Shown here one piece after another: positions 58,101 through 61,100 of a stretch of 64,000 bases of DNA. The position numbers were made by a program. Positions within the stretch are counted from its first letter, which is position 1; every line of letters begins with the position of its first letter. The DNA lies in sequence record CP063550.1; one strand, written 5' to 3'. Source of the stretch: a plasmid.

Positions 58101-61100
58101 CGTTGAAGTTCCTGTTCTTCTTCGGGCGTACGTCGTTCCTTTTCTTCAAGAGCCTGTTCCCTTGTAATATAGTCAATATAAGTAGAAAATGACTTTTTAT
58201 TCGGCAAAGTAAATTGACAAGTGAGAATAACTGAAGGCGATTGAGTCATTATTATCCTCCTTCATTTTTATCTTTTTAGAATCTTCGTTGGATCAAATGG
58301 ATCTACTCTGGCATGAACAGATTCATTCACAGGTTTCTTCAACTGAGGGGAATATTTTTTTGTTTGATTGGATTTAATTTTTCCTTCCACTCGTTCTTTT
58401 GCTTCTTGATAAACAGTTGAATTTTTACCAATTAATATTCCTGTATCTTTCAAATGAAGATCCGCAAATTCTGAAACCATTTCGGTTAAAATAGAAATTT
58501 CTTTACTCATTCCATTCAACTTTGCTTGATTGGAATTTACTTTTTTCTCCACTTCTGGATCATAGTTCATACATAAAAAGCGAACAGCTTCACTATAGTT
58601 TTTAACCTCTGCATGAGTAGAAATAGTTTCATCCAATACATCGATATGTGTTTGGTGAAAGTAAATGTGTTTGTCTATAACCTTTGCCATATCAAAGTTC
58701 ACTTCCTCTATTTTGCTCAATCAAGATTTCTATAATACGATTATTTTGGCTAACATATTCTTCTAATATCTTTGTGTTATAACTTTGAATTTCTGAAAAC
58801 TTTTCTAATAACTGGTCAAACTTTTCTTGTTTGTATTCCATCAAAGGACGATCAAAATCATTTTCAACGAGTAGCTTTAAATAATCATTACGACTCCATT
58901 TATTTCCTGTACGATTACTTAGTTCAACGCATCTTCGATCAATTTCAGAAATGAATTTTGGATCTAAATCTCTAATTTTAACATTCATAAATATCCTCCA
59001 ATATAATATAGGATAGTGAAAAGGATCCTATCCTTTTCGCTATCCTACCTCTATCCTTTTACTATCCTTTGCTATCCTTGTACTATCCTATATATTGGTA
59101 TTTTGGGGTCATTTATTTTTTTCAGAAACGTGATAGGCACAGCCTATCCAACCACTTTTTTTAAAAGTGGGGTCACGTTTCCTTATGCTCTTTAAAATTC
59201 GGGGGGGAGTGCTGCACGTGTAATCGATAACCAAATTTAACAGACGAAAAATTGTTGGAATATAAAAATATGACACCCGAAAGAAAACGATCGTTGGAAA
59301 AATTAATGCAACTAGTGAACGAAGACGGCGGAATTTCAGACGCAGCTTTTGACGCATGGAGCGAATTTCATGGAGAATATAATTAAGTGGGTTTAAATGG
59401 CTCTAAAATCGCTTCTAAGAGTTTTTTAGCTTGGACCAATGAAATACACCAAAAACTAAATAAAACGTCTTAAATCGAAAAATACGAGCTCTCAGAGCGA
59501 CTTTATTTGTAAATGTTGCATATAAGAAATAATTACGGATTTTAGACTTTTGTAGGATATTTTTGAAATAAATATTTATTTCTGTTATAATTTGATTGCA
59601 AATAAGTGAACACGAAACACACGAAATCCCCAGAGAGGTCGGATTCTCTGGGGCTTTTTTTGTGGGCTGAGTCGCCTTAATTAAGTTTTACTTCTTGTTT
59701 CGGTTATTCAACCAGTAACTGAACAAAGCGCTTAAAAGCCCAACAAGAAGGGAGCAAATAAAGTTAGTGAACACGAAACACACCTCCTTCCAGTCGCAAG
59801 ACTGTCGGATAGGCGACAATCAATTATACAATAAAAAAGCAAAAATAAGCCTAAGTTTTTTATTGCCTTGGGGTTGTTAGGGCTTGCCCTGACCGCCTGT
59901 AAGGCGCTTTAGAACGAAGGACATAGTTTTTATCGAATCTTGTCTTAGAACGGCTTAGACGAGCTCTCAGGACGCCACAAAGGAGTCCCTAATGAATTAT
60001 TTTTGGCGAAGGAGCCTAAAGGCGACTGCTGCAAGTAAAATGTGAGAGCGTAGCGATCACTCCTTCTTACAGCGACCATAGGGAGCTAGATTGGCAGTTT
60101 AATATCATGCGCGAACCTGTTTATTTTAAAAAGTGGGTGATTTTTTGGCGGGAAATTTTGCTCGCGCGCGCGCGTTTATTTTATTTATTTTTTAAAGATT
60201 TTTTAGAACCCTTTTTAGGGGGCAGTTGAGCCTTACTCTCCCAACGGATACAGAAGGGTACTAACAACTTTTTATCTGAGTACTAACAACTTTTTATCTG
60301 AGTACTAACAACTTTTTATCTGAGTACTAATATCCTTTTGTATAATAACAACCAACCTATTTACGAGTTGGTTGTTAAAGGTTATTATTTATTTGTAAGG
60401 GGGGAAGAAAGGAATGGATGAAAAAACGGAATTAACAGTCAAATATCAAAATGAATTGAATTTAGTACCGCTGAAAAATTTCAATGCTAAGCAGATGGAT
60501 TTATTTTTTGCATTATGCGCTCGTATGAAAGATCGTGGTTTGAAAAAAGTTAGATTTTCTTTCGAGGAATTAAAAGAGTTAAGTGATTATAAGATGACTG
60601 CTACAAAAGCCTTTGTCGGTGATTTAGAAAAGCTCTATAAAGATATGCTTAATCTTACTTACCGTACTGAAGATGAGGATTCTATTCGCTACTTTGTTTT
60701 GTTTACTGGTTTTGAAATCAATAAAACAAAAAAGTTTGTTGAAGTCAGTGTTAATCCGGACCTAGAATATATTATTAATGGTTTAACAGCTGAATTTAGT
60801 AGATTTGAATTATCTGCTTTCACGTCGTTGCGTTCTACGTATGCAAAAACTCTATTCCGACTGCTTATGCAGTACCGTTCTACTGGTTATTATGTAGTTC
60901 GTATTGAAGAGTTTAGGAGGGTTCTGTTGCAAAGTTTTAAATAAAGAATAAAATCCCTTACGGTATCTATGATTTAAGCTGGGATTCCCAATAATACCTT
61001 GATTTCAGTACAGACCGAAAACCCGAAGAGAGTGCCTTCTTTTCGGGTTTTCTTATATAATCCTCGAATGGCTTCCATGCCTTTAATCGTGGTAGAGGCA

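Follow-up and report, generated by a model that had tools for sequence, protein, structure and literature searches.

Toxins of the Fst family, whose founder is Fst of plasmid pAD1, are recognized by a Trp located between a hydrophobic helix and a charged tail, and by a P/D/S/TxxxG motif (PMC7472228). Both the Pro and the Gly of PxxxG are essential for toxicity in Fst of pAD1, and the Pro is essential also in Lpt (PMC7472228), a peptide shown to be toxic in Escherichia coli (PMC5608710). Furthermore, Fst-like loci are associated with theta-replicating plasmids of staphylococci (PMC4885055), and the par genes of pAD1 have been reported absent from the Enterococcus faecium strains of one mobilome study (PMC4438569). 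Here we analyze a locus in the region 59560-59840 of a 64,000-nucleotide (nt) stretch of plasmid DNA (sequence record CP063550.1), which we call the window, and we conclude that it is very probably a plasmid-borne type I toxin-antitoxin module of the par/Fst family. This identification draws directly on its sequence elements, on the family membership of its toxin, and on the covariation and lineage specificity of the pairing between its toxin mRNA and an antitoxin small RNA (sRNA). The reported absence of par genes fits a locus whose divergence from pAD1 par would hide it from searches made with pAD1 par targets.

As such, the locus is an ordinary 'addiction' module of a well-described family, with a toxin that is already named in RefSeq. 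What is added to existing knowledge is limited to an unannotated sRNA and the evidence from covariation, which provides a clean computational demonstration of sRNA-mRNA pairing and its lineage specificity, and no new mechanism. An earlier note, made from the sequence alone, had proposed a par-like type I locus here. The elements that it listed lie where it placed them, and its proposal is borne out by the match of the peptide to NF033608, by co-varying complementarity, and by a layout of the pAD1 type.

Layout of the locus and pairing of its two predicted RNAs

The central elements of the locus, in window coordinates, are as follows.

59563-59591, plus strand: predicted antitoxin sRNA promoter, with a -35 TTGAAA (59563-59568), a 17-nt spacer, and an extended -10 TGTTATAAT (59583-59591)
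59598-59660, plus strand: predicted antitoxin sRNA (RNA II-like, ~63 nt), with a 5' tail predicted to be unstructured (59598-59622), followed by a terminator hairpin and U-run
59598-59604, plus strand: block 2 of the sRNA tail, GCAAATA, complementary to toxin codons 5-7 (UAUUUGC)
59605-59622, plus strand: repeat copy 1 (block 1), AGTGAACACGAAACACAC, part of the sRNA tail; its complement in the toxin mRNA runs from the final base of the Shine-Dalgarno (SD) sequence through codon 3
59624-59657, core stem 59628-59653, both strands: shared bidirectional intrinsic terminator, called on both strands
59688-59774 including the stop, minus strand: toxin gene of 28 amino acids (aa), MFTNFICSLLVGLLSALFSYWLNNRNKK, with a GTG start (59774-59772) and a TAA stop (59690-59688)
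59754-59760, minus strand: target of block 2, UAUUUGC, in codons 5-7, with a 5-nt bulge (59761-59765) between it and block 1
59766-59783, minus strand: repeat copy 2 (block 1), over the toxin translation-initiation region, where the mRNA reads GUGUGUUUCGUGUUCACU
59783-59787, minus strand: SD sequence GGAGG, 8 nt upstream of the GTG and invariant in all relatives

The 18-nt repeat occurs as two exact copies in the 64-kb window, both on the plus strand and nowhere else. When up to three mismatches are allowed, 0.02 matches are expected by chance, none of 100 shuffles gave two, and the window holds no further copies; a repeat search extends the similarity to 23 nt at 91% identity. Since the repeats are direct and the transcripts run in opposite directions, the sRNA is complementary to the toxin mRNA. 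The earlier note had described this complementarity as 18 nt long; the exact copies are as it described, and its extent was understated, as the complementarity reaches 25 nt in two blocks. For the window, RNAduplex pairs sRNA and mRNA over 18 bp and 7 bp with a 5-nt bulge in the mRNA, at -37.0 kcal/mol. The direct repeats that characterize par loci are therefore present here, at 18 + 7 nt.

Short open reading frames (ORFs) and promoter-like sites are generally frequent in AT-rich DNA, and a promoter scan reported a total of five sites against 3.4 expected, so the ORF, the repeat, and the promoter-like sites might be thought of as chance features. This explanation has next to no probability left and is refuted by the low expectation for the repeat, by a peptide score above the curated cutoff of the NF033608 model, and by elements that are conserved and co-vary across genera.

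Diverged relatives at 75-86% DNA identity are found on plasmids of E. faecium, E. faecalis, and E. avium, and relatives at the peptide level on plasmids of E. faecium, E. gallinarum, Pediococcus, and Staphylococcus. All complete loci have the same layout, consisting of a -10 box, an invariant 5' untranslated region (UTR), GGAGG, a start codon, an ORF of 28 or 31 codons, the terminator, a copy of the repeat, and an sRNA promoter on the opposite strand. The Pediococcus locus ends at the edge of its record, so that its terminator and sRNA region fall outside the comparison. The block conserved between lineages (window 59597-59838) runs from the predicted 5' end of the sRNA to the toxin -10, matching both predicted transcripts. 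Within this block the repeat itself exists in different versions.

Window: GTGAACACGAAACACAC
L005-L007: TCAAACATTAGATACAC
L004: GGTAATCAT(G/A)AGATACAC

Further versions are found in L009, L010, L014, and the staphylococcal loci. Within each locus both copies agree, and those differences that do occur between them are mostly compatible with G-U pairing. In an alignment of nine distinct loci and 25 pairs, 96.9% of cells form standard pairs and 15 of the 25 pairs are changed on both sides, a result matched by none of 500 shuffles; sliding the register by 1-3 columns lowers the pairing to 29-50%. The helix of block 2 is 96.8% paired and is changed on both sides in L010 (GCAGAU / AUCUGC). The earlier note had staked its proposal on repeat complementarity recurring in homologous plasmids, and there it is both present and co-varying. 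The pairing is also specific to lineage, with cognate duplexes at -32 to -37 kcal/mol and non-cognate duplexes mostly at -8 to -25 kcal/mol; a cross-reaction is predicted between the window mRNA and the sRNA of L014 (-30.9 kcal/mol).

A hybrid locus, L003, was also observed (positions 201-478 of NZ_OR251469.1, pEfm732558-vanA). Its sRNA promoter and tail are identical to those of the window, its toxin mRNA is of the L007 type, and the crossover is at the conserved terminator. The same hybrid is present at 100% identity in four plasmid records (NZ_OR251469.1, NZ_CP046075.1, NZ_OR262468.1, and NZ_LR135310.1). Its sRNA-mRNA duplex in cis reaches only -13 kcal/mol, compared with -33 to -37 kcal/mol for normal loci, and its toxin has Glu in place of the motif Gly. 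A speculative extension, to which we give little credence as a whole, is that the pairing region defines several nearly orthogonal specificity groups of Fst-type modules among co-resident E. faecium plasmids, and that recombination at the terminator could make hybrids such as that of pEfm732558-vanA. The toxin of such a hybrid, unmatched by its own sRNA, would need silencing in trans by the sRNA of another plasmid, or might already be disarmed by the Gly-to-Glu change; the window toxin, with Ser for Pro, would perhaps be attenuated too. If true, silencing of the hybrid toxin in trans would make one plasmid dependent on another.

Toxin peptide, predicted promoters, and predicted RNA structures

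On the minus strand the start region reads GGAGG-TGTGTTTC-GTG, followed by a frame of 28 codons, which agrees with the hydrophobic 28-aa peptide, GGAGG ribosome-binding site, and GTG start proposed earlier; the same coding sequence (CDS) is present in RefSeq. The earlier note had suggested comparison with an Fst/Ldr profile. The peptide matches the NCBIfam Fst model NF033608 over its full length with 33.6 bits, above the curated cutoff of 26 and close to the 34.7 bits of the founder Fst of pAD1, and it scores 15.6 bits on PF13955, below the gathering score of 36. The PF13955 threshold is uninformative because Fst of pAD1 (22.8 bits) and PepA1 (24.3 bits) likewise fall under it. Among solved structures the best match is Staphylococcus aureus PepA1 (4b19, E 0.003), with FSYWL..RN.K in common. 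A hydrophobic stretch from F5 to Y20, predicted to form a single transmembrane helix, is followed by W21 and the tail LNNRNKK, which places the Trp as in the family signature, and S8-L-L-V-G12 is the SxxxG form of the P/D/S/TxxxG motif.

All enterococcal relatives compared retain a frame of 28 codons, with GTG, ATG, or TTG as the start. Variable sites at codon positions 1, 2, and 3 number 15, 10, and 18, a distribution that is weakly informative for an ORF partly under RNA-pairing constraint. Residues 8 and 12 (window 59739-59753) vary in E. faecium plasmid lineages: Pro8 is replaced by Ser (in the window) or Ala, and Gly12 by Glu in five of 11 enterococcal loci compared, with variants at these residues in L004, L006, L007, L012, and L013. 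Such changes may mark attenuated toxins. The toxin ORF also contains a perfect 9-nt inverted repeat (59691-59699 and 59742-59750, minus strand), whose core of 8 bp (CUUCUUGU, codons 9-11; ACAAGAAG, codons 26-28) does not vary in any enterococcal relative and is predicted by RNAalifold to form a helix; its CCCUUC stretch could alternatively pair with the SD.

The sRNA promoter (TTGAAA-17-TATAAT) has 11 of 12 consensus matches together with a TG before the -10, and its TTGA and TG-n-TA are kept in homologues; in sequence it agrees with the strong extended -10 promoter, convergent with the toxin, that the earlier note had proposed on the plus strand. The 5' end of the sRNA was placed from the position of the -10 and a conserved GCAAAT, and similarity to relatives of 81% identity starts at this point (window 59597). 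In the centroid of the predicted fold the tail stays single-stranded, and the hairpin has -19.7 kcal/mol (z -2.8). The stem at 59628-59653 has 10 bp, six of them GC, and is followed by CTTTTTTT on the plus strand, which agrees with the earlier proposal of a ~60-nt transcript ending in a canonical terminator. The terminator is the overlap of both predicted convergent transcripts, which gives them complementary loops in the manner of the shared terminators of par loci, and it shows a compensatory change from C-G to U-A in four enterococcal relatives (column 189/210).

A separate, sub-threshold Rfam match links 59529-59657 (plus strand) to S. aureus RsaJ, with 27 bits (E 2.8e-4) against a gathering score of 100. 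The alignment is limited to the 3' end of the model, comprising a TATAAT-like box, a tail similar to that of the sRNA, and a terminator, and the RsaJ model may include a segment that resembles a par-type antitoxin; a literature check gave no link between RsaJ and toxin-antitoxin systems.

Further predicted elements of the toxin mRNA and its promoter are as follows.

59823-59828 (59828->59823), minus strand: perfect -10 TATAAT of the toxin promoter, TATAAT or TAAAAT in relatives
59811-59817, minus strand: 5' arm of the upstream helix, mRNA GUCGCCU, at the extreme (predicted) 5' end of the toxin mRNA, pairing with 59671-59677
59781-59815, minus strand: predicted 5' stem-loop, in which CGCC and UCC pair with GGAGGUG (including the SD) around a CAGUC-UUGC-GACUG hairpin
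59671-59677, minus strand: 3' arm of the upstream helix, mRNA AGGCGAC, 11 nt past the stop codon

The one element of the earlier proposal that does not hold is an extended -10 in the toxin promoter. The bases before this -10 are TTG, which puts the TG one position nearer than a canonical extended -10 requires, and the TG is absent upstream of the -10 in homologues (AAGATATAAT, AGGGTATAAT). No recognizable -35 was found, and the site was not reported by the promoter scan. By analogy with pAD1, the toxin mRNA would be ~200 nt long (~59818 to ~59620, minus strand) and weakly promoted. When its 5' region is folded in isolation, the whole of GGAGGUG is paired (-14.6 kcal/mol), and the RNAalifold consensus contains the UCC/GGA pairing and the CAGUC-UUGC-GACUG hairpin; the conserved 5' UTR occurs once in the window. 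RNAalifold of 11 toxin mRNAs also recovers the upstream helix (columns 1-6 with 161-166). At both of these sites staphylococcal relatives carry other sequences, GUCGUCGU and ACGACGAC, that are again complementary to each other, and the helix between 5' and 3' regions that is typical of par loci is therefore present.

These elements suggest a mechanism modelled on pAD1 par (PMC7472228), from which both transcripts and their ends, the relative stabilities of the RNAs, the toxicity of the peptide, and the stabilization phenotype are taken by analogy. A strongly promoted and abundant sRNA would engage the toxin mRNA both by the complementary terminator loops and by its 5' tail. This 25-nt tail would pair with a stretch that begins at the final SD base, spans the start codon, and ends at codon 7, blocking ribosome binding. 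Until the sRNA is bound, the 5' stem-loop of the mRNA would cover the SD and delay translation, and the upstream helix, which joins the 5' end to sequence just after the stop, would protect and stabilize the toxin mRNA. As in pAD1 par, the paired RNAs may then accumulate as an untranslated pool. On loss of the replicon the less stable sRNA would not be replenished, toxin would be made, and the plasmid-free cell would stop growing (post-segregational killing).

Distribution, plasmid setting, and role

In 112 plasmid records, almost all of them from E. faecium, a 401-bp segment around the locus is conserved at 99% identity or more, and these plasmids range in size from ~3 kb (autonomous) to more than 100 kb. 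Where the gene tables of identical plasmids list anything, RefSeq/PGAP names the CDS 'type I toxin-antitoxin system Fst family toxin' (WP_125669474.1), at coordinates that are exactly those of the window ORF. The locus is of relevance chiefly to annotation. At 28 codons, the toxin CDS falls below the 60-aa limit of the ORF track, and it is named in only some of the RefSeq copies; the antitoxin sRNA lies outside every Rfam family and is missed by the models of pAD1 RNA I and RNA II. Near-identical copies also occur in three plasmid records labelled Staphylococcus, including NZ_CP092548.1 (labelled Staphylococcus aureus), which could reflect transfer between genera or mislabelled records.

Downstream of the locus lies the presumed origin of a small replicon.

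60258-60330, no strand assigned: iterons, presumed origin (GTACTAACAACTTTTTATCTGA), three perfect 22-bp iterons (~3.3 copies)
60414-60944, plus strand: Rep_3-family initiator ORF of 176 aa, with the N-terminal WH1 domain only (PF01051, 103 bits)
60974-61660: ORF of the size of IS1216, just beyond the Rep_3 ORF

The iterons and the Rep_3 ORF are about 430-580 bp from the toxin-antitoxin locus, and because they lie so close downstream, the adjacency to a plasmid origin that was noted at the outset is correct. A MobL relaxase gene lies upstream of the locus, and the wider window matches 200-300-kb E. faecium plasmids rich in insertion sequence (IS) elements. Two repeats were observed in these surroundings. 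A 29-nt imperfect direct repeat (59467-59495 and 59942-59970, 76% identity; GTCTTAAATCGAAAAATACGAGCTCTCAG, GTCTTAGAACGGCTTAGACGAGCTCTCAG) flanks the cassette with a spacing of 475 bp and could be a recombination site or cassette boundary. Just downstream of two small hypothetical genes that accompany the MobL gene, tandem repeats with 11- and 21-nt periods (59028-59090; CTATCCTTTTA...) may be part of an origin of transfer (oriT) or another array of binding sites.

With iterons and rep within ~750 bp, the short and strongly promoted RNA might also be a countertranscript that controls replication of the Rep_3 replicon, instead of an antitoxin. We reject this highly improbable explanation on strand and position: the sRNA shares its strand with rep, from which it lies well upstream, and so is not antisense to rep mRNA. 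Furthermore, the complementarity of its tail to the toxin initiation region is maintained by covariation, and the same cassette is found in plasmids with unrelated replicon types.

Identification as a par-family module has several points weighing against it, some of which concern the RNAs. The U-tract of the terminator on the toxin strand is short (AUUUCGUGUG), and the terminator loop AUCCGACC has no YUNR U-turn motif, which is not a defining feature because not all homologues carry it (Weaver 2020, PMC7472228). An Rfam search of 59300-60100, even at E<=10, gave no match to RefA9 (RF02844) or RefB11 (RF02848), nor did permissive thresholds reveal any par or Fst antitoxin family at the locus. 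The 5' stem-loop is statistically undistinctive (z only -1.4), and the 37-nt 5' UTR is invariant among enterococcal loci, leaving no covariation in it; for these reasons the stem-loop is predicted and not demonstrated. Full-text literature searches with the peptide sequence and for an Fst-like locus of E. faecium returned no paper on the locus and no expression data for either RNA. In the toxin, residue 8 is Ser where most enterococcal relatives have Pro (PLLVG), and with Ser in place of an essential Pro the toxin could be weakened. Finally, the neighbouring rep gene is apparently truncated, and the module perhaps sits in a dead replicon inside a megaplasmid.

Truncation and the Ser substitution also bear on an alternative that we regard as a minor possibility, namely that the module is a genuine member of the par family that is attenuated or inert here, a relic in a small-plasmid fragment captured by IS elements into a megaplasmid, with little or no role in maintenance. 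The replicon in the window does look like a captured, truncated small plasmid inside a megaplasmid: the adjacent Rep_3 ORF has its N-terminal domain only, the IS1216-sized ORF lies just beyond it, and the wider region matches IS-rich plasmids of E. faecium. In this respect it is relevant that Ser replaces the Pro of PxxxG and that related lineages have changed Gly to Glu or Pro to Ala, at the two residues essential in Fst of pAD1 (PMC7472228). However, the ORF and all regulatory elements are intact, the pairing of sRNA and mRNA is perfect in the window copy, identical sequence is found on autonomous ~3-kb plasmids, and the SxxxG form is known in an S. aureus clade of the family (PMC7472228).

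It is also improbable, in our view, that a functional module has as its main role something other than post-segregational killing, such as a stress response, competition or exclusion between co-resident plasmids through lineage-specific sRNAs, or abortive infection. Plasmid stabilization by pAD1 par is the only verified function in the family (Weaver 2020, PMC7472228), which leaves room for other roles, and several nearly orthogonal groups of pairing specificity exist among E. faecium plasmids, along with the recombinant in several plasmids that has a mismatched sRNA and toxin. Against this, the module lies beside a plasmid origin and on very small plasmids, where stabilization is the simplest benefit, and nothing in this analysis points to another role. 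In the reading that we favour, the par-family module probably helps to maintain the plasmids that carry it, which include very common small ones as well as megaplasmids of hospital-associated E. faecium.

Comparison with described systems

The locus was compared with a pAD1-type par locus, L011. As in pAD1 par, there are convergent promoters, a shared bidirectional terminator, and an sRNA of ~64 nt, features that in the window are predicted from sequence. In both, direct repeats give the sRNA a tail that can pair with the toxin initiation region, a GTG start follows GGAGGTGTGTT, a 5' stem-loop is predicted to cover the SD (with an analogous fold for pAD1-type RNA I), and a helix ties the 5' end of the mRNA. 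The direct-repeat architecture of pAD1 par, to which the earlier note had likened the locus, is matched both in this comparison and by the family features described by Weaver 2020 (PMC7472228).

There are also clear differences from pAD1 par. The pAD1 peptide has 33 aa and that of the window 28; Fst of pAD1 has Val at the family Trp site, an acidic tail, and PxxxG, whereas the window peptide has Trp, a basic NNRNKK, and SxxxG. The complementary blocks are 10 + 14 nt in pAD1 and 18 + 7 nt in the window, where they are contiguous in the sRNA, and the repeats are spaced by 186-188 nt in pAD1 and by 161 nt here. In the pAD1-type locus, as in a staphylococcal relative, the terminator loop carries a UUCG U-turn motif, which the window loop lacks. 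Furthermore, RefA9 and RefB11 of Rfam match L011 (84 and 53 bits) but not the window locus, whose RNAs are analogous to those of pAD1 in layout and too diverged for these models.

Among staphylococci, the Fst-like loci of plasmids (relatives from S. equorum and S. aureus) have the same layout, two-block repeats, and an equivalent 5'-3' helix, although their peptides have 31 aa with PxxxG and are ~50% identical, and their UTRs differ. The SprA1/SprA1AS system of S. aureus encodes PepA1, the closest peptide with a solved structure (4b19), and in both SprA1/SprA1AS and SprA2/SprA2AS a convergent sRNA, encoded in cis, uses its non-overlapping 5' domain to act on the initiation region (PMC6393315, PMC4885055). 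These two systems differ in being chromosomal or on a pathogenicity island and in having a PxxxGC motif with a staphylococcal Cys, and PepA1 is also cytolytic from outside the cell.

Lpt, of Lactobacillus rhamnosus and L. paracasei plasmids, belongs to another genus and to other plasmid backbones, and is likened here by its published description. It is a plasmid-borne Fst-family peptide of similar size (29 aa), and its locus carries a single long complementary repeat of 24 nt with the start codon inside it, and an sRNA tail predicted to be single-stranded (PMC5608710). As at the window locus, upstream helix (UH) and stem-loop (SL) elements are predicted for Lpt, and the antitoxin promoter is stronger than the toxin promoter (PMC5608710).

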